From IMG/VR virus record IMGVR_UViG_3300035670_000210, positions 1-62,329 of that record: a stretch of 62,329 nucleotides of DNA; one strand, written 5' to 3'. Each line of letters opens with the position of its first letter. Position 1 is the stretch's first letter. Under the pieces are notes generated by a model that was given only the letters and a program-made list of their open reading frames with translations, was not told the origin of the DNA and made no database searches. Made by a program: the position numbers and the translations under genes. The DNA is from a virus. Its lineage: Duplodnaviria; Caudoviricetes. This document shows positions 1,251 through 53,962 of the stretch, in pieces.

Positions 1251-1273
1251 GGGCACAGCCCAAGGAGAACACG

Positions 1274-3997: not shown

Positions 3998-4294
3998 ATG
4001 GCCAAGTATAAGAACAAGGCGTCGAGAACCAACACCCCTTGGACCGACGCCGATTACGCCAACCTGCGCGCTATGTATGCCGCGGGCATGAGCAAGTGGG
4101 ACATCTCGAAGGAGTTGGACCGCTCCCCCGGTGCAGTCCAAGCGCAGGTATACACGCTGGGGCTCCATAAGATTGTTAGTGACGCACTAACAAGTCAGGA
4201 CGCAACTAATCACGTGAGTAATGTAACTACTACGTCGACATTAAAACGCTGGTGGACACGCCTGTTCGGCGGGTCAGATATGGGAGCACAGTAA
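3998..4294 (+). CDS. GcrA-like HTH protein
   Basis: WTDADYANLRAMYAAGMSKWDISKELDRSPGAVQAQVYTLGL resembles the GcrA N-terminal domain; AGGAGAA RBS before ATG 3998. Confidence 0.7.
   Translation: MAKYKNKASRTNTPWTDADYANLRAMYAAGMSKWDISKELDRSPGAVQAQVYTLGLHKIVSDALTSQDATNHVSNVTTTSTLKRWWTRLFGGSDMGAQ
4174..4192. repeat. Palindrome copy 5 TGTTAGTG-acg-CACTAACA
   Basis: Inside the HTH gene, just after the HTH domain (encodes IVSDALT). Confidence 0.95.
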
Positions 4295-6507: not shown

Positions 6508-6526
6508 CGTTAGTGCGGCACTAACA
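6508..6526. repeat. Palindrome copy 6 cGTTAGTG-cgg-CACTAACA
   Basis: Intergenic, before the RBS of 6544. Confidence 0.95.
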
Positions 6527-8458: not shown

Positions 8459-8828
8459 AAACGATCTGCAGGGGCTAAGGGAGAGACCGTATTTCAAGAT
8501 GCGTGACCTCATTATAGCCAATGGGACTGAGCGCTGCCCCAACCGTCGGGCTTACTGGATAGGCGACCCGCGCGATAAAACTCCACATGATGATAACATA
8601 TACCGTGTGGTAGTAAATAACACCACGGGACACGTTAAGGTGGCATGTATCGGGCTAGAAAGTGTTGACGCGATAGTGGATGGCACCTATGATAGTGTGC
8701 AAGACCTGCCGAACTGGATGCAGGAGAAACTCACGTTGCTCAGTATGCTCAGCCCCATGCCACCTACTGAACCCGTTGCAGGGGTGGGTCGCCGTATCAA
8801 CCCGGATATATACTGGGTGTTTTGTTAG
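8445..8828 (+). CDS. Hypothetical protein; start uncertain
   Basis: LPNWMQEKLTLLSML...VAGVG motif shared with the upstream gene. Confidence 0.7.
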   Translation: MWLAENDLQGLRERPYFKMRDLIIANGTERCPNRRAYWIGDPRDKTPHDDNIYRVVVNNTTGHVKVACIGLESVDAIVDGTYDSVQDLPNWMQEKLTLLSMLSPMPPTEPVAGVGRRINPDIYWVFC

Positions 8829-8841
8829 TGCGACACTAACA
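8823..8841. repeat. Palindrome copy 7 TGTTAGTG-cga-CACTAACA
   Basis: Its TAG is the stop codon of 8445..8828; followed by a GGGGGC-tacg-GCCCCC hairpin. Confidence 0.95.
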
Positions 8842-9495: not shown

Positions 9496-10000
9496 TGAGG
9501 AAAAAGTTTGGGCGTATCTGCTAAAGGATCGGCAGGCAACGGCTCATGATGTGGCACTAAACTGCGATGTAACAGAGGCTTATGCGGAGGAGTTGATGAG
9601 CAAGATATCTAGTCCAAACTGGAGAGAAGACGTTAGTGCGCCACTAACAGGAGGCGTGAAGTTCGACGCCGACAAAGCACGATACGACCTGATCCCGCCG
9701 GAGATCGAGGAAGCCATCGCCAAGGTGCTGACATTCGGCGCGGTCAAGTACGGTGAGCGCAACTGGGAACTTGGTATGCGGTGGGGGCGTCCATACGCTG
9801 CACTGCGGCGACACATGACTGCGTGGTGGTCAGGAGAGAACACGGACCCCGAAACGGGGATGCCGCATACATGGCATGCAGCCTGTTGCATTGCCTTCAT
9901 CGTAGCGTTCGAGGCGAGGGGGGCCGGGACAGATGACAGACCAGATACCAAAACAAATACACCCGACATTACGGGAAGCGATCAAGAGCCTGTCGGATGA
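9485..10000 (+). CDS. dATP/dGTP diphosphohydrolase-domain protein (DUF5664-like) with HTH-like N-terminus
   Basis: KFDADKARYDLIP..VLTFGAVKYGERNW..RH..DPETGMPH..HAAC; GTG start after AGGAGAA. Confidence 0.8.
   Translation: MGYDEEKVWAYLLKDRQATAHDVALNCDVTEAYAEELMSKISSPNWREDVSAPLTGGVKFDADKARYDLIPPEIEEAIAKVLTFGAVKYGERNWELGMRWGRPYAALRRHMTAWWSGENTDPETGMPHTWHAACCIAFIVAFEARGAGTDDRPDTKTNTPDITGSDQEPVG
9631..9649. repeat. Palindrome copy 8 cGTTAGTG-cgc-CACTAACA
   Basis: In frame at the domain junction of 9485..10000. Confidence 0.95.
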
Positions 10001-10151: not shown

Positions 10152-10170
10152 TGAACCAAGGAGGAGAAAA

Positions 10171-12882: not shown

Positions 12883-12899
12883 GAACCTAGGAGAACAAG

Positions 12900-14729
12900 A
12901 TGAACCTGATAACGCTTGATTTTGAGACTTATTACGACCGGGACTATTCTCTGTCGAAGATGACCACAGAGGAATACATACGTGATCCGCAGTTTGAAGT
13001 GGTCGGCGTTAGTGTGAAGGTCGGCACGGGCGAGACCGAGTGGGCCAGTGGCACTATGGGGCAGATAAAGAAGTATCTGCAGCGGTTTGACTGGGTTAAC
13101 AGCATGATGCTGGCACACAATACCATGTTCGACGGGGCGATCCTGTCATGGCACTTTGGTATTCAGCCGAAGGCGCTGGCGGATACTATGCACATGGCTC
13201 GTGCACTGCACGGCGTCGAGGCCTCCGCATCCCTTAAGGCTGTCGCGGAACGCTACGGCGTTGGCGTTAAAGGCACCGAGGTGGTGCGCGCCATGGGTAA
13301 GCGGCGGCTGGACTTTACCGATGAAGAACTCAGCACGTACGGTGACTACTGCATCAACGATGTGGACCTGACCTATAAGCTGTTCAGGCTTATGTCCAAA
13401 GAGTTCCCCGTGAAGGAACTCAAGCTGATCGACCTGACTCTGCGTATGTTTACTGACCCAAAGTTGGAGCTGGACAAGGACCAGCTGGAAGCGCACCTCA
13501 CCGCAGTGCGCGAGCGTAAGGACCAGCTGCTTGTTGAGGCAGGAGTGGACGACAAGGGCGACCTCATGTCAAACCCGAAGTTTGCGCTCATGCTCAACAT
13601 GCTGGGCGTCACTCCGCCCATGAAGGTAAGCCCCACAACGGGTAAGGAGACCTACGCGTTTGCCAAGAACGACGAGGAGTTCAGGGCACTGCTGGAGCAC
13701 GACGATGACCGGGTGCAGGCACTCGTAGCGGCACGGCTGGGCACCAAGTCCACACTAGAAGAAACACGGACGCAGCGGTTCATCGACATCGCCAGCCGGG
13801 GCAAGCTACCTGTCCCGGTGCGTTACTACGCTGCGCATACGGGTCGGTGGGGTGGGGATGACAAGATCAACCTGCAAAACCTACCAAGCCGCGGGCCCAA
13901 TGCTAAGGCGTTGAAGAAGGCGATCGTTGCACCTGAGGGCCACACTATCATCGAGGCTGACTCGGCACAGATCGAAGCGCGGGTGTTAGCATGGCTGGCC
14001 GAGCAGGAAGACCTTGTTAGTGCCTTCACTAACAAAGAAGATGTTTACAAGAAGATGGCGTCTACCATTTACGGCGTAGCTGTGGACGACGTGACCAAGG
14101 ACCAGCGGTTCGTGGGTAAGACCACGATTCTCGGTGCAGGTTACGGCATGGGTGCACCCAAGTTCCAAGCTCAGCTAAAGACGTTTGGGTTTGATATGCC
14201 GCTCGATGAGGCACGGCGGGTCATCAATATCTACCGCGAAGCCAACTGGAACATCAGCAACTTGTGGAAAGAGGCGCAGATCATGCTGCGTTACATGGCA
14301 CAAGGTGATCGGGTTACGTTCGGGCGGTCGGGTGTCATAGGGGTGGACCCCGTTAAGAAGGCACTGATCCTGCCGAGCGACCTGCCGATGTATTACCACG
14401 ACCTGTTTGCGGTCGAGGAGGAGAAGGGCCCGCAGTACTACTACAAGACCCGCGCTGGGGATAACAAAATCTATGGTGGTAAGGTCGTGGAGAACGTGTG
14501 CCAAGCCATCGCACGGTGTATCATTGGTGAGCAGATGTTACGTATTGCCAAAAGATACAAAGTCGTGTTGACTGTGCATGACTCCATCGTATGCTGTGTA
14601 CCCGACGCCGAAACCGATGCGGCCAAGACATACGTGGAAGATTCGATGCGTTGGGTGCCGAGTTGGGCTGAGGGCCTGCCCGTGGACTGCGAAGCAGGAA
14701 CAGCAAAAAGCTACGGAGAATGTGAATGA
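12900..14729 (+). CDS. Family A DNA polymerase with 3'-5' exonuclease
   Basis: Exo DFET/HNTMFD/YCINDV; motif A DSAQIEARVLA, motif B RFVGKTTILGAGYG, motif C VHDS. Confidence 0.95.
   Translation: MNLITLDFETYYDRDYSLSKMTTEEYIRDPQFEVVGVSVKVGTGETEWASGTMGQIKKYLQRFDWVNSMMLAHNTMFDGAILSWHFGIQPKALADTMHMARALHGVEASASLKAVAERYGVGVKGTEVVRAMGKRRLDFTDEELSTYGDYCINDVDLTYKLFRLMSKEFPVKELKLIDLTLRMFTDPKLELDKDQLEAHLTAVRERKDQLLVEAGVDDKGDLMSNPKFALMLNMLGVTPPMKVSPTTGKETYAFAKNDEEFRALLEHDDDRVQALVAARLGTKSTLEETRTQRFIDIASRGKLPVPVRYYAAHTGRWGGDDKINLQNLPSRGPNAKALKKAIVAPEGHTIIEADSAQIEARVLAWLAEQEDLVSAFTNKEDVYKKMASTIYGVAVDDVTKDQRFVGKTTILGAGYGMGAPKFQAQLKTFGFDMPLDEARRVINIYREANWNISNLWKEAQIMLRYMAQGDRVTFGRSGVIGVDPVKKALILPSDLPMYYHDLFAVEEEKGPQYYYKTRAGDNKIYGGKVVENVCQAIARCIIGEQMLRIAKRYKVVLTVHDSIVCCVPDAETDAAKTYVEDSMRWVPSWAEGLPVDCEAGTAKSYGECE
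14015..14034. repeat. Palindrome copy 9 TGTTAGTG-cctt-CACTAACA
   Basis: Inside the polymerase gene just after motif A (LVSAFTNK). Confidence 0.93.
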
Positions 14730-15391: not shown

Positions 15392-15654
15392 TGCCATACG
15401 TGAACAAGCCACGCCCGTACAAGAAAGAGTACGAGCAACAGAAAGCGCGAGGCGAACACGAAGACCGCATGGAGCGGCAGCGGGCTCGCCGCAAGTTCGA
15501 TAGCGAGAACGGTAAGTCCAAGCGCGAGGGTAAAGACATCGCACACAACAAGCCCCTGTCTAAAGGCGGCACCAATAAGGACGGGTATACCCTCCAATCC
15601 CCAAGCAAGAACAGGGCAGCTGGCGGTGCAATCAGTAGCCCCAAGAAACGTTAG
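15391..15654 (+). CDS. HNH-type protein (T7 gp7.7-like)
   Basis: GKDIAHNKPLSKGGTN..SKNR. Confidence 0.75.
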   Translation: MPYVNKPRPYKKEYEQQKARGEHEDRMERQRARRKFDSENGKSKREGKDIAHNKPLSKGGTNKDGYTLQSPSKNRAAGGAISSPKKR

Positions 15655-15667
15655 TGCCACACTAACA
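15649..15667. repeat. Palindrome copy 10 cGTTAGTG-cca-CACTAACA
   Basis: Its TAG is the stop of 15391..15654; directly before the helicase RBS. Confidence 0.95.
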
Positions 15668-15678
15668 CTGGAGAGAAC

Positions 15679-17214
15679 ATGAAGATCATCAATGGTAAGG
15701 CGCTCCTGCTCAGGCTGCGCAATCCAAACCGCGTCACTGAAACAATCCCTAAGAGTAAGGTGACAGGTCCGCACGAAGTCGCTGTCCGGTGGGGTGTTGA
15801 TGAGGTGCAGACTCTGCACAGTCTCGGAGTTAAGGCACCGTCGCCGATCTCTGGGCGATATGACTGGCCCGGTCGATACAGGCCAATGGGGCACCAGAAA
15901 ACGACTGCTGAGTTTCTCACAATACACAAGAAGTCATTTTGCTTTAACGAGCAGGGGACCGGCAAGACCGCCTCTGCTATCTGGGCCGCGGACTTCCTGA
16001 TGAAACAAGGCAAGGTGCGTAGAGCGCTGATTATCTGCCCGCTCTCAATTATGGACTCAGCGTGGCGTGCAGACTTGTTCGAGGTGGCTATGCACCGAAC
16101 CGTGGATGTAGCCCACGGCGACGCTAAGAAGCGCAAAAAGATCATCGAGGGCGGCGCGGAGTTCGTCGTAATTAACTTTGACGGTGTCGAGATCGTCGAG
16201 GAAGAGATACGCAACGGTAAGTTTGACCTTATCATCGTAGACGAGGCGACGCACTACAAGAACGCACAGAGTAAACGTTGGAAGTGCTTGAACCGGCTCG
16301 TGACTGACGACACGTGGTTGTGGATGATGACGGGTACACCCGCCGCGCAGTCCCCGCTCGATGCCTTCGGCCTAGCTAAGCTGGTAAATCCTAGCGCAGT
16401 GCCGCGGTTCTTCGGGTCGTTTCGCGACCAAGTGATGATGAAGCTCACGCAGTTCAAGTGGATAGCCAAGCCGAATGCAACGGAGACGGTGTACAATGCA
16501 CTGCAGCCAGCGATCAGATTCACCAAGGATCAGTGCTTGGACCTGCCAGATATGACTTACGTAAAGCGGGCAGTCGAACTGACCCGCCAGCAGAAAAAGT
16601 ATTACACCGAGCTAAAAAACAAGCTCGTCATGGAAGCCGCGGGTGAGGAAGTGACCGCAGCCAACGCAGCCATCGTTATGAACAAGCTGCTGCAAATCAG
16701 CGCCGGGGCGGTCTACACCGACGACGGAGCCACGTTGGAGTTCGATATCAAGAATCGGTACAACGTGCTGAAAGAAGTCATCGACGAGAGCAGCCAGAAG
16801 GTGCTGGTGTTTGTCCCATTCAAGCACACCATTGACGTTCTGGTGGGGAAGCTACGCGGCGACGGGTTTACTACCGAAGTGATTCGCGGCGACGTACCAG
16901 CAATGAAGCGGACAGAGATATTTAAACGCTTCCAAGAGACCCCTGACCCCAAGATATTGGTGATCCAGCCTCAGTCGGCAGCACATGGTGTGACTTTAAC
17001 AGCGGCCAATACTGTCGTATGGTGGGGGCCTACTTCGTCTCTGGAGACCTATGCACAGGCAAATGCACGGGTGCACCGATCGGGGCAGAAGCATCCATGT
17101 ACAGTCGTGCAGCTGCAAGGTTCTGCTGTAGAAAAACACGTGTACGCGCTGCTAGATAACAGAATTGACGTACACACAAAAATAATCGACTTGTACAAGC
17201 AGATACTTGACTAG
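15679..17214 (+). CDS. SNF2-family superfamily II helicase
   Basis: QGTGKT, IVDEATH, TGTP, QANARVHRSGQ. Confidence 0.93.
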   Translation: MKIINGKALLLRLRNPNRVTETIPKSKVTGPHEVAVRWGVDEVQTLHSLGVKAPSPISGRYDWPGRYRPMGHQKTTAEFLTIHKKSFCFNEQGTGKTASAIWAADFLMKQGKVRRALIICPLSIMDSAWRADLFEVAMHRTVDVAHGDAKKRKKIIEGGAEFVVINFDGVEIVEEEIRNGKFDLIIVDEATHYKNAQSKRWKCLNRLVTDDTWLWMMTGTPAAQSPLDAFGLAKLVNPSAVPRFFGSFRDQVMMKLTQFKWIAKPNATETVYNALQPAIRFTKDQCLDLPDMTYVKRAVELTRQQKKYYTELKNKLVMEAAGEEVTAANAAIVMNKLLQISAGAVYTDDGATLEFDIKNRYNVLKEVIDESSQKVLVFVPFKHTIDVLVGKLRGDGFTTEVIRGDVPAMKRTEIFKRFQETPDPKILVIQPQSAAHGVTLTAANTVVWWGPTSSLETYAQANARVHRSGQKHPCTVVQLQGSAVEKHVYALLDNRIDVHTKIIDLYKQILD

Positions 17215-17235: not shown

Positions 17236-17260
17236 AGAGGTCCAGCTAAAGGAGAACACC

Positions 17261-17967: not shown

Positions 17968-18201
17968 ATGACAAAGGGCGAATACCGCGTAGGTATCAAC
18001 TTTAACCCGTCGAACAATGACATGGTTGGGCAGATCAAGCGCAAGGCAGCTGACCTGATTGACCTGATCGAGACGGTTACCACCGACGGCGAGACGGACC
18101 AGTACGTAGAGGTCTCGCGCCTCAAGGCGCTGGCGCAGACCGCGATCGAAGAAGCCGCGATGTGGGCTGTCAAAGCCGCAACCAAACCACCCGTAGCGTA
18201 A
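17968..18201 (+). CDS. Acb2/Tad1-like helical-hairpin protein (candidate nucleotide-signal sponge)
   Basis: C-terminal RLKALAQTAIEEAAMWAVKAAT resembles the R..(S/A)LA.T.LEEA.MW pattern of sponge hairpins; by recall. Confidence 0.55.
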   Translation: MTKGEYRVGINFNPSNNDMVGQIKRKAADLIDLIETVTTDGETDQYVEVSRLKALAQTAIEEAAMWAVKAATKPPVA

Positions 18202-18212
18202 GGAGAACGCAC

Positions 18213-19127
18213 ATGAGTGATCTAGAACTCTTTAAGGGCAATAGCCTTGTCAATAGTGACCTGTTTAAGTCGCTGCTGCAGACCAACGACAACCTCGCTG
18301 GTGGTGGTGGGTCTATGCGCCGCATCAGCTTCAAGGGTTCGCGCTTTCGTGAGCTCGTGGGTGGTGAACAAGTTAACGTAAACAGCAGCGGCTCGCTGAA
18401 TGTTGTCGTGCTTGATGCTGCCAAGGTATCCCGCACCTACTATGCGGGTACCTACGATTCGGAAAACCCGGCACCGCCCATGTGCTGGTCACTGGATACT
18501 CAAGCCCCTGCACCGGAAGTTCCCAACGATCAGCGCCAAGCCTCTCGCTGTGCTGACTGCCCGATGAACGTGCGTGGCTCTGGCCAAGGCGATACTCGTG
18601 CCTGCCGTTTCTCGCAGCGCATCGCGGTTGCCTTGGAGAACAGCTACGACAAAGTGTATCAAGTCCAGCTGTCGGCCACCTCGGTGTTTGGTGAAGCCAA
18701 AAACGGTAACATGCCCATGCAGGCGTACGCCCGCTACCTGAAGGCTCACAACGCACCGATCCAAGCTGTCGTCACCACGCTGCACTTTGACGAGGACAGC
18801 GATGTGCCGAAGCTCTTCTTTAAGGCGGCGCGTCCGCTGGTTGAGAGCGAGTTGAAGGAAGTTCTCGCACTACGTGAGCACGAGGATGTCACCCGCGCAC
18901 TGACCATGACAGTGTCGCAGGCGGACGGCGTAAAGGCAGAGAAGAAAGCCGAACCGAAGAAGGCTGAGCCCAAGAAGGCTGAGCCGAAGAAGTCGAACAA
19001 CGTCCTTGCAGATGAGGACGAAGGTGATGCCGTAGAAGAGCCGAAGAAGGTCTCAAAGAAAGAGGAAGTTAAAGCCTCGGATGATGACCTTGGTGATCTT
19101 GTCGACGCGTGGGACGACGACCAGTAA
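18213..19127 (+). CDS. Putative ssDNA-binding/annealing protein
   Basis: Replication-module position, CADCP..C zinc site, KKAEP linker, acidic C-terminal tail LVDAWDDDQ. Confidence 0.65.
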   Translation: MSDLELFKGNSLVNSDLFKSLLQTNDNLAGGGGSMRRISFKGSRFRELVGGEQVNVNSSGSLNVVVLDAAKVSRTYYAGTYDSENPAPPMCWSLDTQAPAPEVPNDQRQASRCADCPMNVRGSGQGDTRACRFSQRIAVALENSYDKVYQVQLSATSVFGEAKNGNMPMQAYARYLKAHNAPIQAVVTTLHFDEDSDVPKLFFKAARPLVESELKEVLALREHEDVTRALTMTVSQADGVKAEKKAEPKKAEPKKAEPKKSNNVLADEDEGDAVEEPKKVSKKEEVKASDDDLGDLVDAWDDDQ

Positions 19128-19135
19128 TCATCACT

Positions 19136-19172
19136 GGGCCGTGGCTACATAGTGGTCACGGCCCTCTCTTCT
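19136..19172 (+). terminator. Hairpin/terminator-like element
   Basis: 13-bp stem GGGCCGTGGCTAC-ata-GTGGTCACGGCCC (with G-U pairs) followed by a pyrimidine tract. Confidence 0.6.
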
Positions 19173-19185
19173 GTGGGCACGGGCG

Positions 19186-22008
19186 ATGGAAACAAAAAGA
19201 TTTTTGCAGAGCGTACTGGCCCATGAAGGCTGGTACTGTGTTCTAGCAATACATGCGGAAACAGGGCGGCGTAAGCAGAAGTTCTACAACTCGCTGGACC
19301 ACCTGATGGATGCTAACACGGCGTTCGATCAGGATGGATACAACGCGTATTACGCTGTTGGCACATTTCAGACTGACGAATCTCGCGAAGCCGACAATGT
19401 CGCGCGCAAGCGAGCGTTCTACCTCGACCTCGACTGCGAACCAGACAACCCGAAGAAGTTCCCTGACCAGCCAACCGCGCTGCAGGAGCTGCGTCGGTTC
19501 TGCAAGGTAATGCAGCTACCTAAGCCGATCACGGTGGACTCGGGACGGGGTGTGCACGTCTACTGGCCGCTAGACGAGGATGTCACGCTGGCTGAATGGA
19601 CGCCTGTAGCTGAACGTCTTAAGGCTAAGTGCAAGGAGCACGGCTTCAAAGCCGACCCCGCCGTGACGTCTGATGCAGCGCGCATCCTGCGCATGCCGGG
19701 CACCCATAACCACAAGGACAACCCACCTAAGCTCGTTAGGGTTTTAGGGGTGGACCCAGTGCGGCCCGTGGCCTTCGACAAGTTTGCGGAGCTGATGGGT
19801 GATGACCCAATACCAGTTCCCAAGAAGTTTACGCCTGTCAGCGGCAGCAACGCCGTGATGGATGCGCTTATGGGGAACCGTGAGCACTACTTCAAAGACA
19901 TCATGCTGAAGACGGCCAAGGGTAAAGGCTGCATGCAGCTAGCCTATATCTATCGAAATCAGGAGACTATGTCGGAGCCCCTGTGGCGGGCAGGGCTGTC
20001 GATCGCCAAGCACTGTGTCGACGCCGACAGTGCAGCGACTAAGATTTCTCAGCGGCACCCAGAGTTCACGCCAGACGATATGTTTGACAAGATGGACCGC
20101 ATTAAGGGCCCATACCTCTGCACGACGTTTGATGAATATAACGAGGGGGTGTGTAGCGGCTGTCCGCTGTGGGGTAAAATCAAGTCACCCATCGTTCTCG
20201 GCTCACGGACCCGTGAGGCTACCGCAGAAGACAACGTCGTCGAGGTCGCACCGAGCCCCAAAGCCGAACCCGCTGCGCAGCCGCAAGTCTATGTCATCCC
20301 GACATACCCAAAGCCCTACTTCCGCGGAGCCAACGGGGGCATCTATATAAGGACCGAGGATGCTGATGGGGATGTCATTGATAAGTGCATATACCACAAT
20401 GACTTATACGTTGTGCGCCGCGTGACAGACGGGGACGAGGATGCACTGGTGTTCCGACTGCACCTACCGCGGGATGGGGTGCGTGAGTTTACCGTACCGC
20501 AGGTCTCGATCACGTCTAAGGACGAGTTCCGGAAAGCTATTGGCTCGAAGGGCGTCACGGCATTTGGTAAAAATCTGGAGGAGCTTATGGCCTACACTAT
20601 CCGCTGGATTGAAGAGCTGCAGCACCAAGGCGCAGCCGACATTGCTCGCACACAGTTTGGCTGGTCTGACGACCAGTGTGGCTCGTTCATCCTTGGCGAC
20701 AGAGAAATCTTCGCCAATCACATAGACTTCAACCCTGCATCTATTAAGACCGCCGGACTGTTCGACGCTATGACCCCACGGGGCACACTGAGTGGGTGGA
20801 TAGAAAACGCTGAGTTCTTTAACAAACCGGGCATGGAGCTGTACCAATTCGCGCTATGCGCTAGTTTCGGCAGCGTGCTCATGCACTCTTCGCCGATGAG
20901 CGGCGCACTGCTTCACATGTTCAGCAAAGACTCTGGTCTTGGTAAGACGACCGCCATGATGATGGCGCTGACCATATGGGGTAGGCCGATGGGGCTACTG
21001 CTGAAAGAGCGGGACACGATGAATCACCGCATGAACCGTGCGGAAGTATACAAGAACATCCTGTTCGCCACCGACGAGATTACCAACATGCGCCCGCTGG
21101 CTGCGTCTGATATGACCTATGCCATCACCGAGGGTATGCAGCGTGGTCGTATGGAAGGCGGTGCCAACCAAGAGCGCGTCCGCGGTTTTGAGTGGAAGTT
21201 TCTAGCGCTGTCCACTGGCAACATGAGCCTCGTTGAGAAGATCACTTTGGCCAAAGCTGCGCCGAAAGCAGAGGCACAGCGGGTGCTGGAAGCGCGCGTG
21301 GACAAGTTCTTTGATGGTAGTGGCGACAAGGCCATGACCGACGAGTTCTCAAACAACGTGCCACTGCACTACGGACATGCCGGAGTTGTGTTCGTCCAGC
21401 ATTATATGCGCAACATGGCGTCGATCCGTGCATTGGAGGACAAGGTTCGCAAGGCCGTAGACGAGAAGTGTAACTTGGGTTCATCGAACCGCTTCTGGTC
21501 TGAATACGTTACGAAGGCTATGACGGCAGCGATCGTGGCCAGCAAAATCGGCCTTGTAAACTACGACACGAAACGCATGTTCAAGTTCGTGATTGACTTA
21601 GTGAAGTACAACCAAGGCGTCACTGAGGACATGACAACCTCTTCAAGCCAGATACTCGCAGACTTCTTTGCCGAGCATAACGGTAACATCCTAGTCATTA
21701 AGAGTAACGGCGTAGTTAACGGTATAGAGTCGCTGATTATTCCGGAGATGAACCCACGCACGAAGCTCGTGGCGCGGTACGAGTCAGATACGAAGAAGGC
21801 ATTTGTGCTACTCAAGCCGTTCAAGCGGTGGTGTCTGGAGCAGCAGATTGACTACTCATCCTGTGTTGCGGACCTCGTGAAGAACAAGGGTGCCACCAAG
21901 CGCAAGATGCGCATCAGCAAAGGTACTAATCTGCGGCTACCGCCGGTTGACGTTATCGAAGTAGATTTTGAGCTGGATGTGGGTGAGGGCGATGAAGCCG
22001 ATACCTAA
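19186..22008 (+). CDS. AEP/RepB-type primase fused to DUF927-type helicase
   Basis: YLDLD, SGRGVHVYW, RILRMPGT; Cys cluster; Walker A SGLGKTT, Walker B ATDE. Confidence 0.88.
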   Translation: METKRFLQSVLAHEGWYCVLAIHAETGRRKQKFYNSLDHLMDANTAFDQDGYNAYYAVGTFQTDESREADNVARKRAFYLDLDCEPDNPKKFPDQPTALQELRRFCKVMQLPKPITVDSGRGVHVYWPLDEDVTLAEWTPVAERLKAKCKEHGFKADPAVTSDAARILRMPGTHNHKDNPPKLVRVLGVDPVRPVAFDKFAELMGDDPIPVPKKFTPVSGSNAVMDALMGNREHYFKDIMLKTAKGKGCMQLAYIYRNQETMSEPLWRAGLSIAKHCVDADSAATKISQRHPEFTPDDMFDKMDRIKGPYLCTTFDEYNEGVCSGCPLWGKIKSPIVLGSRTREATAEDNVVEVAPSPKAEPAAQPQVYVIPTYPKPYFRGANGGIYIRTEDADGDVIDKCIYHNDLYVVRRVTDGDEDALVFRLHLPRDGVREFTVPQVSITSKDEFRKAIGSKGVTAFGKNLEELMAYTIRWIEELQHQGAADIARTQFGWSDDQCGSFILGDREIFANHIDFNPASIKTAGLFDAMTPRGTLSGWIENAEFFNKPGMELYQFALCASFGSVLMHSSPMSGALLHMFSKDSGLGKTTAMMMALTIWGRPMGLLLKERDTMNHRMNRAEVYKNILFATDEITNMRPLAASDMTYAITEGMQRGRMEGGANQERVRGFEWKFLALSTGNMSLVEKITLAKAAPKAEAQRVLEARVDKFFDGSGDKAMTDEFSNNVPLHYGHAGVVFVQHYMRNMASIRALEDKVRKAVDEKCNLGSSNRFWSEYVTKAMTAAIVASKIGLVNYDTKRMFKFVIDLVKYNQGVTEDMTTSSSQILADFFAEHNGNILVIKSNGVVNGIESLIIPEMNPRTKLVARYESDTKKAFVLLKPFKRWCLEQQIDYSSCVADLVKNKGATKRKMRISKGTNLRLPPVDVIEVDFELDVGEGDEADT

Positions 22009-22216
22009 GCTGGATGATTTGCACCCGGATGGGGTGCGCGTGGTAGTAAACTGGGATGCCATGAGCGTCGGGATGTCAGTATTTATACCCTGCATAAACA
22101 CCGAGATGGCGGAGAAGCAACTGGCTAAGATATCTGAGCGTAGGAAGATATCACTGCAGGTTCAGGAGCGGATAGAGGATGGACGATTTGGGCTACGCGT
22201 CTGGCGTACACTATGA
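21992..22216 (+). CDS. Hypothetical protein (last gene of the + arm)
   Basis: GMSVFIPC..GLRVWR motif; GAGGG RBS. Confidence 0.7.
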   Translation: MKPIPKLDDLHPDGVRVVVNWDAMSVGMSVFIPCINTEMAEKQLAKISERRKISLQVQERIEDGRFGLRVWRTL

Positions 22217-22223
22217 TACAGTG

Positions 22224-22302
22224 CGCGCACTCATGGGAATACCGAAGGGTTTTTCATGTTCTCCTCCCTGTTACTATACCCCGCCTCACGGCGGGGTTTT
22301 TT
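22224..22302 (+). ncRNA. Candidate anti-SD small RNA
   Basis: Possible TTGGGC-18-TATGAT promoter, 5' hairpin, exposed UUCUCCUCCC, intrinsic terminator. Confidence 0.45.
22278..22302 (+). terminator. Rho-independent terminator at the arm convergence
   Basis: ACCCCGCC-tcac-GGCGGGGT followed by a T run. Confidence 0.9.
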
Positions 22303-22303
22303 C

Positions 22304-25300
22304 TTAGTCGAACAGTTGGAAGCCTTGGTTCCATTCCTCGCGGCTCTCCCTTTGCGCGCGCTCCATGTTCGGGCTGATAGTGATGCCGTTGTACATGCTC
22401 CGTGTGGTTTCCAAGTGCTGCCGCATCGAGCGACGGAGGGAATCGGCGTCGATACGGGCCGTGGGGTGCCGCTTATTGAACTCCCGAATACGCTCCAGCA
22501 TGCTACGCCGCTCGTCGCTGTCCCCCATACGAGTAGCCACGTAATAACGACGTAGCAGGTTAGTGCGTGTGGTGTTTACCGCGCGGTCGACGTTCTTAGT
22601 CTGCTGATTCATCTCTTGGGTGCGGGTGTATTCTGCAGGTGCAAAGCCGACAAACTTTGCGGCCAGCTGTCCAAAGGACAGGTCGTCCATGATTGGGTCA
22701 CCGCGCCGAGTGACAATACCATCGTCGTTCGGGAACCGGAACGCAGCCTGATAGGCGTTGCGAACACCAGCAGGCAGCATAGCTTCTACACCACGTTCAA
22801 CTTCACCGTTCATTATATCTTTGAATCCGCGATTGTAGGAGGAGATAACACTCCATGCCGGACCGCCCAGATAGTGAAACACGTCCTCCTCAAGCGACGC
22901 ATCGTGGTTGAAGCGGTTGGCTTGGAAGATGAGCCCCGACAAGCCGATACGGCTGGACATGTCCACCCCGAGCAGTGCAGTGAGTGGGCCCTTGTAGAAA
23001 CCCTCACCGATCGCCTTGCGTACAACGGTTTCGACGTCGTCCTCTTCGTCATCGAAGAAGAAAAAGTCGATCAGCTGCATAAGCTCCCGTGCCAGCGGCA
23101 TACCAACAACACCCGCCAGCACAAACGACGTACCCATGACTCCAGCAAACTGCCGCATAGCTTCGTTGCGGGCAACTTTATCTCCAGCGTGGTGTGCATC
23201 CAGTGCGTCACGTATGGTTTTGAACATGGAGTAGTACATCTGGATGCCATAGGTCTTATACATGAGCGCCACGCGCCCAATACCCTGTTGGCTAAACCGC
23301 GGGGCGGTCTCCAGCACCGAGCCACCGTTGGTCATCTGCGTGTTGTAGAGCGCGCGTTCGGCAGCTTTTGTCCGCATTTCTGCAGCGGACAAGGTAGGCT
23401 CATCCTTCTTGAGGCGTGCAAGCTCAAGCTGGTACGCCGAGATAGCTGTGACTTGCCGGTTAAAGACTTCGACGTTGTGGAACATGAACGCCGATGCCGC
23501 CGACACGGTATCAATTACACCGCGCTCACGCCCAGAGCTGTCAATGCCGAGATTGTCGGCGAACAGGGAGCGGTTCAGCTGCCCGCGTGCGGCCATCATC
23601 TCCACAAGTGGTTTGAGTTCCTCAAGCTGTGCCCGCAACTCGGGCTCAAGGTCCAAGTCCTTCCGCAGCACGTAGTCACCATTGCCGTCCAGCTCGAAGT
23701 AGTTATCGACGCTAGGCATTGCGCGGACCTTGATGTTCCGTTCGTCGCCATAGGGTGCAACCATGTCACTCTTGCGATTAAACCCACTGCTGGTGACCAG
23801 CTTGGAGGCGTTCATAATTGCACGCCCAGTAGCACCGTAGCCATGACGTCCGGCAAACATGGGGTATACAAACATGGGCAGCTGGGACAGGTTGACCAGC
23901 GCCGAGGATACGTTGAAGCCGATGGTGAAGACGAACGCCGCACGGTTGGCGTTCTGTGCGAGGGAGTCGCCCGGTGGATTACGTGCAAAGTCTGCCCGGG
24001 CTTCAAGCTCGTCGAGGATATACTTGTTCTCCTCCGTCAACCGAGGCCGATTGTCTTCAGCAATTTTATCCTGCAGATCACGCAGCTTCGCGCTGTACCG
24101 CAGCCGCTCCACCTGCCGACCAAGATCGAACGCCTTGGTCTTAAGCGCGAAGATTGCATCTTCTTGGTAACCCGCCGTGCCCTTGCGCCGTTGCAGTGAC
24201 TTGGCAAACGACGTCTCTGGTAGGGCCTCCACGAACAGGCGCATGATCTCAGCCTGCACATTGTCGGGCACCTTGTTAGCCCGCAAGACTTGAAGGGTCT
24301 GACCTACGAACGAGCTTGGCGGCGCTTTGGAATAGTTGGCGTTGTTGACGTTGACGAACTTTTCGAGGTTCTTGACCGTCTTGTCCGCTTTGAGGTCGTC
24401 CATTGCACGGTCGCGTTCGGCCATGGTCTCAAAGGCTTCGACGGTGAACTCTCCGTTGGCAACATACGACACCCAATAATTGCCAGAACGTGTTAGTGGG
24501 AAGTACGGCTCGATTGTACCAGTCGAAAACAGGCGCGCGTATACTTCGTTCTTCAGTTTTTTACGTGCCGCTTCGTCAGTAATTGTCTCGTCAATCTTGC
24601 CGTAGATGACATCCCGCATGCGCTCGTACTGCTTTTTGTACGTGTCGCGCATCTGCGTGTAGACCTTATCTCCACCAGTAGCGGACAGAGCCCGCCAGTC
24701 AGCGCGCATGGCCTTCCACGCCTTAACTTTTTCAGGATCACTTGCGTAGGCCGACACGGGTTTGGTTGGGTCGACCTGTTCAACGGTGCTCTTATAGACC
24801 ACACGGTTCAGTGCGTCGATCTGGTCTTGGTGGGCGCGTACCCAATTAGACACCGACTTTAGAACACCCTCAACTTCTTGGTCTGATTTGTTGATGGCAC
24901 CGCGCTGCTCTTCCATGAGCTTGTGCAGGTCCATTGCACCTGTGATTCCGTTGCGTTGCGCCACGTCAGCGACGGCCTGCGAGGGATAAAACCCAAGTAG
25001 AGCCCGCTTAGCCGCGTCAGGGGCAGTGCCTTTCAGGAACTCACGGGTTTGATCCGCGAAGCGCTGCGCAAACTTCTCAGTAATCGGTTTAGACTGTTTC
25101 TGCACATTGCTGAACGCTTTTGCGACCCGTTTACCTGCGGCGCGAGGTGACAGCATGAAGATTTCACCTGTACCGATGTTTCTCGGCGCGGGTGCAAGAA
25201 TATTGTCGATGATGCTGCTGGTCTCCTCCAACGCCGACTCGATCGGCTTAACGGGTTTGCCAATCAAGGTACGTAGGAAGTTTGACACCGCGGCTTTGAT

Positions 25301-28300
25301 CTTAGCGAACGGCGTGAGGGGCTCACCGTTGACCCGCAGCCCAGACAGCATACGCTGGAACTTGGGGTTGGAGAAGGATTCAGCCACAAACTCCGCAAGA
25401 CTCTCGTAGCCATACGCAGTCGGCATGTGCTCGCGAGTTTCGTCAAAGATTTTCTGCAGCTTACGGGTCAGCGGATGGCCCTTGTTGGCGAGCGTCGCAA
25501 CAGTCGCTGCGTGGGTCATCTCGTGCAGGAGCACGTGGGTATTGAGGCCCGCACCATCCAGAATCTGGATTGTGTTAGTTCCCGAGTCAAACCTGCCGAA
25601 GGCACCGCGATCTAGGGACTTAACAACTTCAACCTTGGTATCACCGACGACCCTAGCCAGCTTCTCTGCAACAGCCACAACTTCAGGGTCGTTGCTCGTC
25701 GCTGCCAGCACACGGAGCGCTGCACCGAGGTCACCATTACGCAGGAGACCAGACACCACGCTAGACAGCGGTAGGCGCGACGGGGGCACCGACAGGTTAA
25801 ACAAGCTGCCACTGGCCATGAGGCCACGCACCATCGGATCAGACTCGTCAATGCCGAGTTTCTCCAGCACATCCGCGAGGCGTTTATTGTCGGCATCGCT
25901 CGTCGGGTCAAACCCACCCTCAAACGCTTTTTCAAGCTCACGACGCTTAGCTACAAGGTCGGTGGACTCGAAGGCTTCGACCGCCTGCATGGCGTTCTTC
26001 GATTCAACAGTTTTGCCTGCAATCCACCGCTTAGTGGCTTCAGACATGTTTTTGCTCGCCCAGTCGAGGACGACCTGCGCTGCGTTCTTACCACGTGCAG
26101 GGATTTTACCGTCCTTGGTCGCACCAAAGAACTCGGATTCCCCGTCAGTCATGTCCTCTGTACGCCGGAAGTTCGGAGTCTGCGCGACTACGTCGTCGAT
26201 GGCGTCCTGCAACCCGAGCGCCGGATCAGGGTATGCACCGAGGTACTTCTTGAGCGCACCGACCGAGGCTTTGTTTTCCTTGGTCGATTTCTTGTTAAGT
26301 TCTTGCAGGATGGATGTCTTGTCGCCAACCGTCAGCGGGCTCGTGATCGACAGTCCGAGCTCTTTGACAAACCGCTTAGCCGGTGCAGAGACGTTAGCCT
26401 CGTACCAATCAGCCAACTGCTTGGTGACTTGGTCGCCGCTGACCTTGGGGGCAGACGTCGCCGAAATCTTTTCACGGGGGGCAAGCGCACGAGACGTCGG
26501 GCCCACACGCTCTTCGCGTATCGGCTGTAGGGTCTGGCGATCAATGACCGGGCGCTGTCCAAGAGTCGGCATTACTGCGCGGCGCGTGACGCCTTCTTCG
26601 CCTTCTTCTAGTGCTGGACGCTGTGTTCCTGTTGACTCTTCAGCACGAATAGCGCGCGCGACACGTTCTCCCAGTCCTCTGGGCTTAGGTGTTGCAGGTG
26701 CTCCGGCACCGCCACCTCTACCTCTGCCCCCTGCGCCGACCTCCACGCCGCGTCCACCACCACGAACGCTTGCTCCAGCTCCTTGCTGGTCAGGTGCTGC
26801 AGTGCCATCTGTAACCCCCCGTGTGGTCTCTGAGAAAAGCTCAAGTTGTTGAGGTGTGCCCTGCTGCGTAGCAAGTGCTGGCTGAGATGTGGAGCGTGCA
26901 GGTGCTTGTTGCGAAGCTGGCTGTGCAACTGCTCGGCGCGCTCCACGAGGTGCAAAGAGGTCAGGTTGTTCTTCGGGAACCCCCTCAAGGCGGCGGCTGA
27001 TGCCCAGCTCTGCAGTTTGAGAAGTGCGTGGCTGATTTGCAAAAGAAGTAAGGATTTCACGCGTTGTGGGGTCATTCAGGTCCTTCCCGCGGAGGCGGTT
27101 CCGAATACCGGACTTAGGCGGAATACCCATCTCGTCGAGCATCTCATCGGTAACAACTTCCGGTGCCGCAGTGGGTTCGGCTTCCTGTGTAGGGGCCTGC
27201 TGAACTCTACGACGTACTCCGGGCAAACCAAGCTGCTCAGGCTCACGCGGGGCCCGCTCCGGAATACGCGACTCCATCTCTTGCAGTTGTGTAGCTTCCG
27301 GCGGCAACTCAATCGGCTCCGCCACAGTGGACACTGCATCGGGACGCTCCGCGCGCTGCACGTTTACTGCACGTTGGATGGTCTGAAGTTCGGCTTCCGT
27401 GGCCTTAGCTTTATCGTTCTTATACCCTGCACGTGCCAGTGCATCCTCGTACAAACGAGACACGCGGTTGTAGTTACGGCTGGGGGTCTTCTCGATAACG
27501 TCTTGCAGGATACGACGCCGACCCTGTTCGGTGGCTTGCTGACGCTGCGTTTCCTGCTGCCCGGCGATAGTTTCAAGGTCGGACTCGGCACGCAGTGCCG
27601 CCCGCTGCCCCTGCTGCGCACCTTCTGCGGCTTCAATAGCGGCGAGCTGGTCGACGATGTCGGCGTCTTCTTGTGCAGCCCGCTGGCGCTGGTCAGCCAT
27701 CTCGACGAGATCACCCATAGCAGCGGGCTGCTCGGGGGTGACGGTCTCCGCGGCTTCCTCGACGTCCATAAACTGATCGGGCCGACGCAGTTCCTCGGGT
27801 CCCAGCCGACGGCGCTCTTGTTCTTGCTGAAGCGCAAACAAGTCGGGCTGTTCAAACGCAGCTACGTCGCCACGCTCTGCGGCCCGCAGGCCCTCACGCT
27901 CACGGGCTGCTGCCTGCGCTTCCTGCTCGTTACGGGCGATATCTGCACTGACAGCGCTCTGCCCTGCACGGGCTGCCTGCACTGCTGAGGCGAGACGTGC
28001 CGGAGTCTCTATTTGAAGGGGCGCAGCCGCCTCTTCTTCCATCTCGCCGCGTGCGCGTTCAGCCAAGGCTGAACCACGCCGACCCATCTCCTCAGCGACT
28101 ACACTCTCAAGCTCAGGCAGCGGGACTTGCGTTTGGTCAACAAGCCGCTGCATCTCCTCAAGAGATACGCCGCCTCGCTCGTCGATAGCTTGTCCGATCG
28201 CTGCACGTGCCTGCCCTGCACGCTGGTCAGTAATAAGCCCCGCGATACCCTCCGGTGCGGGCAGTGCAAGCGGTTCTGGTTCCGCTTCGGGTGCCGGGGC

Positions 28301-29218
28301 ACCGGCGCTCGGTGCCCTACGACCTGCAAACAAGTCAACGAGCACCTGAATAGTGGCACCGGCTCCGCCTCCGAAGGCAGCTGCTTCACCTGCACCTTCG
28401 AGGATGGCTTGGTCGACGTTGTAACCACGCTCGATAAGGTTCTGTGCGATACCTGCGGCGGCTTCCTGTGCAGCTTCTTCACCGCCAGTGCGTAGCGCAC
28501 TGACAATGCGTTGCCGGAACCCCTGCACAACTTCTTCGCCGAGATCGCCCGTTAGCTTACCCAAAACACGCCGAAGTGGCAGTGCTTCTGTTGCACCTAC
28601 GGCGGCACCGAAACGCGTAGCACGATTACGCTCTTCTTGCGTAGCCCCGGCTGCACGGGCACGTTCACTTGCTTCGCCAGCACCAGCACCGACACCGAGC
28701 GTGCCTGCAGTGAGGAGCCCCGCGATACCAGCACCTGCAGCGCCAATCCCCGCAGCGCCAGCACCATAAGCAGCCGCAGCACCAGCACCGATGAACCCTG
28801 CAATAGAGCCGAAAGTAGAGCCAATTTTGTAGGTAAGGTCTTCTTCATCCCCGAAGCTGGGGCGTAACGCGCTAGCCGCACCTTGGATGCGCTGACGCGC
28901 AGCGAGTTCTTCCTCCTCGTCGAGCAGTGTAGCTGCACCGAGAGCGGCGGTTTCGCCGATACCGACAACACCAGACGCAAAGCCCCCCGTCAGATCGCCG
29001 AAGAACCCCGTTTCTTCTTCTGGCGGTGGGGGCCGCTGCGCTTCCAATTCGGTGAGCCGCGCCTGACGCTCCTCGGTGCGCGCGGCACGGCGCTCACGCA
29101 TCCCCTGCACGGCCATCTGTTGATTGGCGCGCTGTACAATTTCTGCCTGTGACGCGTTTTCAGGAGCTTCTACTTGGATCGTCGAGCCATCCCGAAGCGT
29201 GAGATTATACCGCGCCAT
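22304..29218 (-). CDS. 2304-aa polyvalent ejected virion protein (zincin metallopeptidase + PLxRFG-like domain)
   Basis: HEMTH..EFVAE zincin motif; YFPLTRSGNY; Gly/Ala hydrophobic N-terminal region; last gene of the structural arm. Confidence 0.8.
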   Translation of the reverse strand: MARYNLTLRDGSTIQVEAPENASQAEIVQRANQQMAVQGMRERRAARTEERQARLTELEAQRPPPPEEETGFFGDLTGGFASGVVGIGETAALGAATLLDEEEELAARQRIQGAASALRPSFGDEEDLTYKIGSTFGSIAGFIGAGAAAAYGAGAAGIGAAGAGIAGLLTAGTLGVGAGAGEASERARAAGATQEERNRATRFGAAVGATEALPLRRVLGKLTGDLGEEVVQGFRQRIVSALRTGGEEAAQEAAAGIAQNLIERGYNVDQAILEGAGEAAAFGGGAGATIQVLVDLFAGRRAPSAGAPAPEAEPEPLALPAPEGIAGLITDQRAGQARAAIGQAIDERGGVSLEEMQRLVDQTQVPLPELESVVAEEMGRRGSALAERARGEMEEEAAAPLQIETPARLASAVQAARAGQSAVSADIARNEQEAQAAAREREGLRAAERGDVAAFEQPDLFALQQEQERRRLGPEELRRPDQFMDVEEAAETVTPEQPAAMGDLVEMADQRQRAAQEDADIVDQLAAIEAAEGAQQGQRAALRAESDLETIAGQQETQRQQATEQGRRRILQDVIEKTPSRNYNRVSRLYEDALARAGYKNDKAKATEAELQTIQRAVNVQRAERPDAVSTVAEPIELPPEATQLQEMESRIPERAPREPEQLGLPGVRRRVQQAPTQEAEPTAAPEVVTDEMLDEMGIPPKSGIRNRLRGKDLNDPTTREILTSFANQPRTSQTAELGISRRLEGVPEEQPDLFAPRGARRAVAQPASQQAPARSTSQPALATQQGTPQQLELFSETTRGVTDGTAAPDQQGAGASVRGGGRGVEVGAGGRGRGGGAGAPATPKPRGLGERVARAIRAEESTGTQRPALEEGEEGVTRRAVMPTLGQRPVIDRQTLQPIREERVGPTSRALAPREKISATSAPKVSGDQVTKQLADWYEANVSAPAKRFVKELGLSITSPLTVGDKTSILQELNKKSTKENKASVGALKKYLGAYPDPALGLQDAIDDVVAQTPNFRRTEDMTDGESEFFGATKDGKIPARGKNAAQVVLDWASKNMSEATKRWIAGKTVESKNAMQAVEAFESTDLVAKRRELEKAFEGGFDPTSDADNKRLADVLEKLGIDESDPMVRGLMASGSLFNLSVPPSRLPLSSVVSGLLRNGDLGAALRVLAATSNDPEVVAVAEKLARVVGDTKVEVVKSLDRGAFGRFDSGTNTIQILDGAGLNTHVLLHEMTHAATVATLANKGHPLTRKLQKIFDETREHMPTAYGYESLAEFVAESFSNPKFQRMLSGLRVNGEPLTPFAKIKAAVSNFLRTLIGKPVKPIESALEETSSIIDNILAPAPRNIGTGEIFMLSPRAAGKRVAKAFSNVQKQSKPITEKFAQRFADQTREFLKGTAPDAAKRALLGFYPSQAVADVAQRNGITGAMDLHKLMEEQRGAINKSDQEVEGVLKSVSNWVRAHQDQIDALNRVVYKSTVEQVDPTKPVSAYASDPEKVKAWKAMRADWRALSATGGDKVYTQMRDTYKKQYERMRDVIYGKIDETITDEAARKKLKNEVYARLFSTGTIEPYFPLTRSGNYWVSYVANGEFTVEAFETMAERDRAMDDLKADKTVKNLEKFVNVNNANYSKAPPSSFVGQTLQVLRANKVPDNVQAEIMRLFVEALPETSFAKSLQRRKGTAGYQEDAIFALKTKAFDLGRQVERLRYSAKLRDLQDKIAEDNRPRLTEENKYILDELEARADFARNPPGDSLAQNANRAAFVFTIGFNVSSALVNLSQLPMFVYPMFAGRHGYGATGRAIMNASKLVTSSGFNRKSDMVAPYGDERNIKVRAMPSVDNYFELDGNGDYVLRKDLDLEPELRAQLEELKPLVEMMAARGQLNRSLFADNLGIDSSGRERGVIDTVSAASAFMFHNVEVFNRQVTAISAYQLELARLKKDEPTLSAAEMRTKAAERALYNTQMTNGGSVLETAPRFSQQGIGRVALMYKTYGIQMYYSMFKTIRDALDAHHAGDKVARNEAMRQFAGVMGTSFVLAGVVGMPLARELMQLIDFFFFDDEEDDVETVVRKAIGEGFYKGPLTALLGVDMSSRIGLSGLIFQANRFNHDASLEEDVFHYLGGPAWSVISSYNRGFKDIMNGEVERGVEAMLPAGVRNAYQAAFRFPNDDGIVTRRGDPIMDDLSFGQLAAKFVGFAPAEYTRTQEMNQQTKNVDRAVNTTRTNLLRRYYVATRMGDSDERRSMLERIREFNKRHPTARIDADSLRRSMRQHLETTRSMYNGITISPNMERAQRESREEWNQGFQLFD

Positions 29219-53626: not shown

Positions 53627-53911
53627 TCACGAAGCGGAGATGGTAGCGAGCGTATCCACGCGAAGCCAGTTAGTTCCATTCGAGAACGCCATGACTGGCG
53701 AACCCGCCGCACCGTTGGAAACGTAAATGACCGTACCAGCGCCAGCCGTGGAAGCCGAAGGGGCCCCTGCAACTGTGTATGACGGGAGTTTGATTGCGCC
53801 GGTGACGTCGCCGGTGATGTTGCCGGTGACGTCGCCGGTGATGTTGCCGGTGACGTTGCCGCTGAAGCCGTTGTTCGAGACGACTGGACCGCTAAAGGTC
53901 GTAGTACCCAT
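53627..53911 (-). CDS. Small virion (head fibre/decoration-like) protein
   Basis: MGTTTFSGPV start; GNVTGNITGDVT repeats encoded by a 12-bp tandem repeat at about 53799-53861. Confidence 0.8.
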   Translation of the reverse strand: MGTTTFSGPVVSNNGFSGNVTGNITGDVTGNITGDVTGAIKLPSYTVAGAPSASTAGAGTVIYVSNGAAGSPVMAFSNGTNWLRVDTLATISAS

Positions 53912-53916
53912 GTGTA

Positions 53917-53962
53917 TCTCCTGTCGTGGGTCAAGTCAGCCACACCGCGTGACTGTCAGGGA
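53917..53962 (-). ncRNA. Candidate structured cis-regulatory RNA downstream of the capsid gene
   Basis: UCCCUG pairs with CAGGAGA (SD), enclosing an 8-bp hairpin CAGUCACG-cgg-UGUGGCUG. Confidence 0.5.

Follow-up and report, generated by a model that had tools for sequence, protein, structure and literature searches.

The phage genome analysed here is a complete virus record of IMG/VR (IMGVR_UViG_3300035670_000210; Duplodnaviria, Caudoviricetes), and its whole length of 62,329 bp is called the window in the following. Its genes lie on two convergent arms, and the 87-nt gap that remains between them (22217-22303) is rather likely to encode, on the + strand, an RNA directed against ribosome-binding sites, be it an independent small RNA (sRNA) or an RNA derived from a 3' untranslated region (3' UTR). 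The gap carries a hairpin, a CU-rich tract and a terminator, the tract is complementary to the Shine-Dalgarno regions of many early genes and to none of the late ones in the window, and in related phages the tract and the early ribosome sites change together. Judged from these patterns, the element probably controls the translation of the phage's own replication genes.

The + strand genes extend from the left end to 22216 and constitute the early arm, which encodes a family-A DNA polymerase (gene 12900), a helicase (15679), a primase-helicase (19186-22008), a PD-(D/E)XK nuclease and an AAA ATPase. The - strand genes run from 62238 down to 22304, and the last of them is the open reading frame (ORF) 22304..29218 for a protein of 2304 amino acids (aa). 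This ORF stops with TAA (22304-22306), the + strand ORF 21968..22216 stops with TGA (22214-22216), and the 87 nt lie in between. On the + strand, the gap is predicted to fold into a 5' hairpin (CAUGGGAAUACC-GAAG-GGUUUUUCAUG, 22232..22258), a mostly unpaired segment UUCUCCUCCCUG... and a terminator, with a minimum free energy of -29.5 kcal/mol (z = -2.85; 3 of 200 shuffled sequences fold equally well). The CU-rich tract AUGUUCUCCUCCCUGUUACUAU (22256..22277, +), which is the proposed seed against early ribosome-binding sites, is mostly single-stranded from 22259 onwards, and its probability of being unpaired is 0.67 in the window and 0.45-0.99 across lineages. It is followed by an intrinsic terminator (stem-loop 22278-22297, T run 22298-22303), the sole terminator that a scan of 21500-23000 detected, which is on the + strand and runs out into TTTTTT. 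Among the terminator-like sites of the window, taken as perfect stems followed by a T run, it is the only one preceded by a long CU run (11 nt, as opposed to at most 8 nt at the other ten). The original prediction, made by a model from the letters of the window, had proposed this order of hairpin, single-stranded tract and terminator, and the fold and the terminator scan agree with it. It had also named the conservation of the tract, covariation in relatives and an early-gene bias of the pairing as checks, and all three are borne out by the findings described below.

The complementarity of the tract concerns early gene starts in the first place. The sequence GAGAACATGAA occurs in the window only at 15673 (+), where the helicase gene starts, and in the gap (-), AGGAGAACA is found at 1263, 12889 and 17250 (+) and at 24033 (-), GGAGGAGAA at 10160 and 14417 (+) and at 24035 (-), and GAGAACATG at 6538 and 15673 (+). 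The matches that had been listed from the start are real, but the coordinates assigned to them (1274, 12900, 17261, 10171 and 6544) are those of the start codons, and the motifs themselves are found 6-11 nt upstream; two matches inside genes, at 14417 and at 24033/24035, were absent from that list. A perfect complement to the tract of at least 8 nt is present in 12 of the 32 early ribosome sites of the window and in none of the 33 late ones (Fisher p = 5.6e-5). The same comparison gave 11/35 early versus 1/14 late sites in the related genome G001, 6/29 versus 0/23 in G005 and 7/25 versus 0/11 in G008, and the four genomes pooled have 36/121 versus 1/81 (p = 1.5e-8). At 42 further loci, the complement was found in 60 of 196 early and 4 of 38 late sites, and the motif GGAGAAC in 58 of 196 early sites and none of the 38 late ones, whereas a generic control with the 16S rRNA tail showed no difference between early and late. 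The tract of the window matches 12 early sites, while any real early site shares 8 nt with at most 6 others, and the tract outmatches the real sites also in G008 and G009, less so or not in G005 and G007. It is more C-rich than needed and thereby closer to a perfect anti-Shine-Dalgarno sequence.

The best conserved predicted target is the ribosome-binding site of the helicase gene, GGAGAGAACAUGAAG (15668..15684, +), with an 11-nt match at 15673-15683. Other predicted targets on the + strand are AGGAGAACA before gene 17261 (132 aa; 17250..17258), with at least 7 nt of complementarity in 8 of 11 genomes, AGGAGAAC before gene 18213 (304 aa; 18201..18208), where 8 of 9 genomes have 7 nt or more, and AGGAGAACA before gene 1274 (DUF3150-like; 1263..1271), with at least 7 nt in all five genomes in which this gene is present. 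The DNA polymerase gene is a predicted target in part of the family, again by AGGAGAACA (12889..12897; at least 7 nt in 5 of 11 genomes). There are also six conserved genes that stay below 7 nt in all of the 9-11 genomes compared, namely 14726, 15391, 17656, 8445, the primase gene and the small last gene. The proposal of an RNA with multiple early targets holds up for the helicase, 17261, 18213, 1274 and the polymerase, but it does not extend to all early genes, and what remains is a subset of the replication module. Full-length duplexfold energies were not used, as the long bulged structures that were obtained looked alike for targets and non-targets.

The tract does not have the same sequence in all phages of this family, and the early sites follow it. 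Across 11 genomes, the variants GUUCUCC, UCUCUCC, UUUCUCC and UAUCUCC were found, which change together with the helicase site, and the triplet that follows GGAG in early sites tracks the tract, being AAC with GUUCUCC, AGA with UCUCUCC (11/35 sites in G001, 5/14 in G003) and AAA with UUUCUCC (4/17 in G006). The helicase site and the tract of the same genome match over 11, 12, 8, 8, 8, 7, 11, 5, 9, 8 and 10 nt, so that the match attains 7 nt or more in 10 of the 11 genomes and 8 nt or more in 9, and this with five different sequences, examples being GGAGAAAGAUAA in G006, GAAGGAGAGAC in G003 and GGAGAUAA in G007. Cognate helicase pairs have a mean of 8.82 nt and non-cognate pairs 6.71 nt, a difference reached in 0 of 10,000 permutations, and an excess of cognate over non-cognate matches was found also for gene 17261 (p = 0.0018) and gene 18213 (p = 0.005). 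In a twelfth lineage, a second copy of the motif gives a 10-nt match to its own helicase site. The covariation in relatives that had been asked for is hence one in trans, between the tract and the ribosome sites. As to individual genomes, the polymerase match of G003 consists of two pieces that are about 1 kb apart, and in G001, the record behind lineage L070, the helicase orthologue (18933-21359 in oriented early-arm coordinates) has 808 aa instead of 511 and contains an intein-like insert.

This co-variation bears on the idea that the tract acts only in cis, as a 3' UTR element that does not pair in trans but is bound by an RNA-binding protein or an RNase of the host, or aids termination or 3' end stability. 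Its position directly 5' of the terminator in every lineage would be in line with such a role, and CU-rich 3' UTRs can bind proteins. A cis element leaves unexplained, however, why the tract tracks the lineage-specific sites of the helicase and other early genes, and why the complementarity is restricted to early sites, and a role in cis without pairing in trans is therefore quite unlikely.

The element has been retained over large distances. A search with the primase gave 23 loci in two bands of about 90% and about 69% identity, a profile search added further lineages at 33-43% identity, and a metagenome scan added the lineage L098 at 65%. Of the 16 lineages defined by the primase that retain the gap, 15 have the same layout, down to 41-43% primase identity: a TGA stop with TA after it, a hairpin specific to the lineage, a CU tract that contains UCUCC, a spacer of 6-13 nt, and a GC-rich terminator with a T run on the + strand. 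UCUCC is present in the tract in 15 of 16 lineages with a gap, with L059 being a weak case of the layout, and in L062 and L063 the genes overlap, so that there is no gap, and the stop is TAG instead of TGA. All lineages with a gap have the terminator, in which 2 of 7 pairs show compensatory changes, and all have the T run on the + strand only. At the position of the 5' hairpin, each relative carries a hairpin of its own. L098 has the full RNA element (FLOH01000041.1, 96830-119658), inside a metagenome contig of 444 kb, and this locus might represent a prophage, a chimeric assembly or something different.

When IMG/VR was scanned with a pattern for this layout, at least 120 stretches were obtained, of which at least 60 passed a strict terminator filter, with at least 51 further distinct sequences among them. 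By their sequence context, these elements are judged to be true homologues from many more lineages, because nearly all of them, among the matches listed, have the C-terminus of one small protein ahead of them, that of the last early gene. Among the matches listed, the hairpin is often of the type GACAG...CUGUC and directly abuts GUUCUCC, and in 47 relatives taken from them, its 5 basal pairs are formed in 87.6% of the cells of the alignment, as compared with 31-53% when the pairing is slid. In these 47 relatives, 18 hairpin cells are changed on both sides, which was reached by 0 of 500 shuffles. With a diverse set, RNAalifold detected only the terminator, and an alignment of the 5' hairpin is possible only inside the larger GACAG...CUGUC group. 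A covariance model, R1, was built from the 47 pattern-found relatives with the window excluded, and its base pairs are those of the terminator only. Its match at 22214..22303 (+), which spans the whole element in full length with 29.9 bits and an E-value of about 3e-7, is the only one in the window on either strand, and conservation of the CU tract is thus seen with a model that had not been trained on the window. R1 also detects lineages whose tract is unlike the search pattern (L070 with 40.8, L020 with 40.2, L053 with 33.8 and L051 with 32.7 bits). Additional CCUCC-like motifs in the loop of the hairpin or of the terminator are present in 14 of 46 relatives among the matches listed.

That the gap has no function, being an ordinary terminator region with a chance likeness to an anti-Shine-Dalgarno sequence, has a negligible probability. 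It is true that any sequence containing CCUCC will pair with Shine-Dalgarno sites, but the element is conserved at 41% primase identity where the flanking gap sequence is unalignable, the pooled bias for early over late sites is strong, and cognate pairs exceed non-cognate ones.

The strand on which the element acts needs separate consideration, as the tract, when read on the minus strand, looks like a strong ribosome site, GGGAGGAGAACAUG, after the late operon. In the window this reverse complement has the textbook form of a strong site, with an ATG at a distance of 4 nt, and the original prediction had offered as an alternative a ribosome site for the mini-ORF MKNPSVFP. The mini-ORF is present but not conserved. 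In 8 of 17 lineages there is no ATG, GTG or TTG at the distance of a ribosome site, and where a start exists, the ORFs have from 1 to 59 or more codons and encode unrelated peptides, which is why a minus-strand coding gene was rejected. The minus strand might alternatively serve as a ribosome standby site or decoy, or it might be a decoy for some protein with specificity for early ribosome sites. GGGAGGAGAACAUG has indeed a higher G content than the early sites, as reflected by the mirror A.C excess mentioned below, and transcription of the late genes may continue past the hairpin, which lacks a U run in this orientation. On the other hand, start codons are often lacking and no peptide is shared, the element lies beyond a strong hairpin as seen from the late operon, and the extra CCUCC motifs are found in loops of the + strand, including the loop of the terminator, which works only on this strand. 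A protein decoy would moreover require an unknown protein that co-evolves at many sites. A functional minus strand, in whichever of these forms, is thus unlikely. For the + strand, by the logic of intrinsic terminators, a T run on this strand only implies that any transcription of the last early gene has to yield an RNA bearing the tract. The hairpin cells contain 23 G.U and 12 A.C combinations, a weak preference for the + strand (p = 0.045, with cells that are not independent).

Another reading is that of a site at the DNA level, where a protein would bind one sequence that is repeated in inverted orientation at the starts of early genes and where the arms meet. Proteins that recognise particular DNA or RNA sequences are plausible in these phages, in view of lineage-specific palindromes just 5' of several early ribosome sites. 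The sequence that is common to the sites and the tract has, however, a fixed Shine-Dalgarno spacing from the start codons, the junction copy is always inverted (11/11 genomes), and it sits within an RNA layout of hairpin, seed and terminator, so that a DNA site is very unlikely.

The promoter that had been proposed for the + strand RNA, TTGGGC-18-TATGAT, is there in letters, but it could not be upheld: the promoter scan gave no + strand promoter in 21500-23000, and the -10 sequence is not conserved, its version in relatives being TGTGAT, CATGAT or CCTGAT, with G or C as second base in most. There is another candidate, suggested by conservation, in the possible extended -10 element (TGnTAnnnT) TGATACAGT (22214..22222, +), which consists of the stop codon of the last early gene and the following TA...T. 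In 20 gap sequences that had been found via the primase, independently of the motif, TGATA is invariant and the T at position 9 is conserved to at least 90%, and the 5' hairpin of relatives begins some 7 nt past the extended -10 hexamer. Two near-consensus sigma-70-like promoters are intergenic and located where the early arm begins, 228-256 (TTGACA-17-TATTCT) and 1159-1187 (TTGCCA-17-TATAGT; both +), and these two best early promoters of the window have a TG-extended -10 as well. It is possible that the conserved TGATA...T represents a promoter of the element's own, though the TGA is also a stop codon, and an origin as 3' UTR and an origin from an own promoter are equally possible.

Several points weigh against an RNA that pairs with early ribosome sites. 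Among the features expected of a generic trans-acting base-pairing sRNA, the element has the U-tailed terminator, a conserved and accessible seed and two-sided co-variation with its targets, but tolerance of G.U wobbles in the intermolecular helix was not found. In 46 tract/site pairs, helices were extended by 0.39 nt when G.U was allowed and by 1.39 nt with the mirror A.C, and these pairs hence give no signature of RNA pairing by wobble. The fold energy of the 5' part did not differ between the strands (p = 0.25, from a script that cut some regions short). The permutation tests for co-variation ignore the relatedness of the genomes, the gene starts behind the early and late counts come from a simple purpose-made caller that favours Shine-Dalgarno sites and kept those starts with a recognisable one, and the way in which the pattern-found set was ascertained fixes TGATA, GTTCTCC and the terminator in it. 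Individual genomes fit poorly: the helicase site of G001 is weak and has only a 5-nt match to the tract, in G005 the tract is equalled in its number of matched sites by 7 of 29 real sites, and the tract matches only 1 of 17 early sites in G007 and 2 of 18 in L098. Scans of genome contigs for a host gave no match.

The RNA would, as the most coherent mechanism, be a + strand regulatory RNA of about 75-90 nt that is composed of the 5' hairpin, the exposed CU-rich seed AUGUUCUCCUCCC and the intrinsic terminator. It would be made as the 3' end of the early transcript, or alternatively from the extended -10 promoter that overlaps the stop codon (TGATACAGT). We infer that it accumulates in infected cells and pairs there with the Shine-Dalgarno region, the spacer and the start codon of some of the early mRNAs of the phage itself, the helicase mRNA being the most consistent partner, followed by those of genes 17261, 18213 and 1274 and of the polymerase. 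The pairing would be expected to block the entry of ribosomes, which would result in a negative feedback on the replication genes; a shut-off at the early-to-late switch, as put forward in the original prediction, is hypothetical. Such an RNA could be a built-in timer or a copy-number feedback on the synthesis of helicase and polymerase, and its CCUCC core might also mask Shine-Dalgarno sites of the host. More generally, the chances are evenly balanced that we are dealing here with a family of uncultured, probably virulent phages in which an RNA base-pairs with the ribosome sites of the phage's own replication genes and co-evolves with them; among what was examined of the window, there were no phage lysogeny genes. 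If true, this would be an RNA-only mechanism for class-specific translational control in phages, it would explain the unusual extended flavour that the ribosome sites of early genes have in common in this family, and it would offer natural orthogonal pairs of RNAs and ribosome sites (GUUCUCC, UCUCUCC and UUUCUCC types).

The shut-down of a class of early phage mRNAs at the post-transcriptional level has a counterpart in T4, where the endoribonuclease RegB and the repressor RegA act via Shine-Dalgarno or initiation regions. RegA and RegB are proteins, whereas the proposed effector of the window is an RNA that reads its sites by base pairing; it would functionally resemble them and, if true, be their RNA counterpart. 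Small RNAs that share the terminator of an upstream mRNA as part of its 3' UTR, and arise by processing or from an internal promoter, are known with CpxQ, SroC and DapZ. These act on other operons of the cell, whereas the candidate targets in the window lie in the same early arm of the phage. The nearest phage RNA would seem to be the c4 antisense RNA of the phages P1 and P7, which, according to the review PMC12197685, is cut from the same operon transcript, pairs with the ribosome-binding region of downstream phage genes and blocks their translation. c4 differs in being located upstream of a single target (ant) and in serving the immunity of temperate phages, whereas the element of the window is at the 3' end of its operon and has many candidate targets in the replication module. 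Known phage sRNAs are, as summarised in the same review, mostly from temperate phages and act on one phage gene or on host genes (PMC12197685). A literature search, with supplements outside its scope, gave no description of a phage RNA that pairs with many of the phage's own early ribosome sites. The small RNAs of PAK_P3 were considered as a precedent for the targeting of ribosome sites and dropped, since the text of PMC4933390 mentions neither RBS nor Shine.

Among bacterial RNAs, the element would act in the manner of the CU-rich cuckoo or alpha-r14 (RF02344) and MmgR sRNAs of Alphaproteobacteria. The sole conserved sequence of the cuckoo family is the unpaired CU-rich anti-Shine-Dalgarno motif CCUCCUCCC, with very variable stems (PMC4615179). 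These RNAs are described there as 2-4 adjacent hairpins with CCUCCUCCC in each loop (PMC4615179). The window has UCUCCUCCC, which is 8/9 of the motif, the L003 clade has the exact 9-mer, and L051 and L123 have CCUCC(C) in loops. Unlike cuckoo RNAs, the element of the window has one hairpin (loop GAAG) and a terminator, with the main motif in the linker and a GUUCUCC core, and whereas cuckoo RNAs are chromosomal, this element belongs to a phage. The ar14 covariance model has no match in 22100-22400 of the window at E <= 10, and L051 reaches 37.8 bits with it, below the gathering score of 58.8. A CU-rich single-stranded motif followed by a terminator is shared also with MmgR/alpha-r8 (RF00519, suhB), the toxic sRNA of Betaproteobacteria RF02278 and anti-hemB RF02837, which gave the best sub-threshold Rfam matches on the + strand, namely RF00519 with 26.3 bits (gathering score 41; E = 0.0014 in a search of 301 nt), RF02278 with 21.4 bits (gathering score 50) and RF02837 with 22.3 bits (gathering score 49.5). 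Membership in the cuckoo, AbcR or MmgR families, the first two of which had been invoked in the original prediction, is not supported, as the scores stay below the Rfam gathering scores and the hairpins with looped motifs of cuckoo are missing. In Rfam 15, only Mu-gpT-DE reaches its gathering score in the window and no family was found for the element, which defines a new RNA motif below the gathering score of all Rfam 15 families.

The last early gene (21992..22216, +), which is always located immediately 5' of the element, encodes the small protein of 74 aa that is conserved in 15 aligned lineages. It had no match in Pfam and PHROG and hence belongs to no family known there. A confident AlphaFold2 model of it has a predicted local distance difference test score (pLDDT) of 86.8 and shows a small strand-helix-strand-strand fold, for which Foldseek gave no match in PDB at E <= 0.001; the insignificant matches include Alba-like and R3H domains (E >= 0.35).

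A DNA search with 21000-24000 of the window gave no match among deposited phage isolates. The nearest isolates by protein, with 25-37% identity, are the Rhizobium phage RHph_TM3_14A and the Pseudomonas phages KPP25 and Rollin. The Rhizobium phage carries a plain bidirectional terminator without a CU tract, Rollin has no gap, and model R1 had no match in either of the two. Alphaproteobacteria as hosts are only hinted at, by the relationship to Rhizobium phages and by a GcrA-like match below the cut-off. The latter match is weak (3998-4294, +; 19.6 bits, cut-off 26.9).

In the early arm, the palindrome GTTAGTGCNGCACTAAC has 7 matches with at most 3 mismatches, all of them in this arm, where 0.2 are expected (302-318, 2202-2218, 4175-4191, 6509-6525, 8824-8840, 9632-9648 and 15650-15666, +), and looser copies are found near 797, 1238 and 14022. 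Several of them are just 5' of ribosome sites, including that of the helicase, and relatives have different palindromes in the same places (ATATCACGC..GCGTGATAT in G001, ..GCCCGAAA in G002). They could be operator sites or RNA processing hairpins. A likeness of the minus strand of the gap to these early modules of palindrome and ribosome site was considered and dropped, as the spacer between tract and terminator is not conserved. The protein encoded at 9596-10000 (+) has the N-terminal domain of a dATP/dGTP diphosphohydrolase (PF18909, 1.4e-34), which may point to modified DNA bases. In the late arm, the Mu-gpT-DE RNA (RF03012) was found at 53909-53961 (-) with 63.3 bits (gathering score 49), and it adjoins a strong terminator-like hairpin at 54022-53995.

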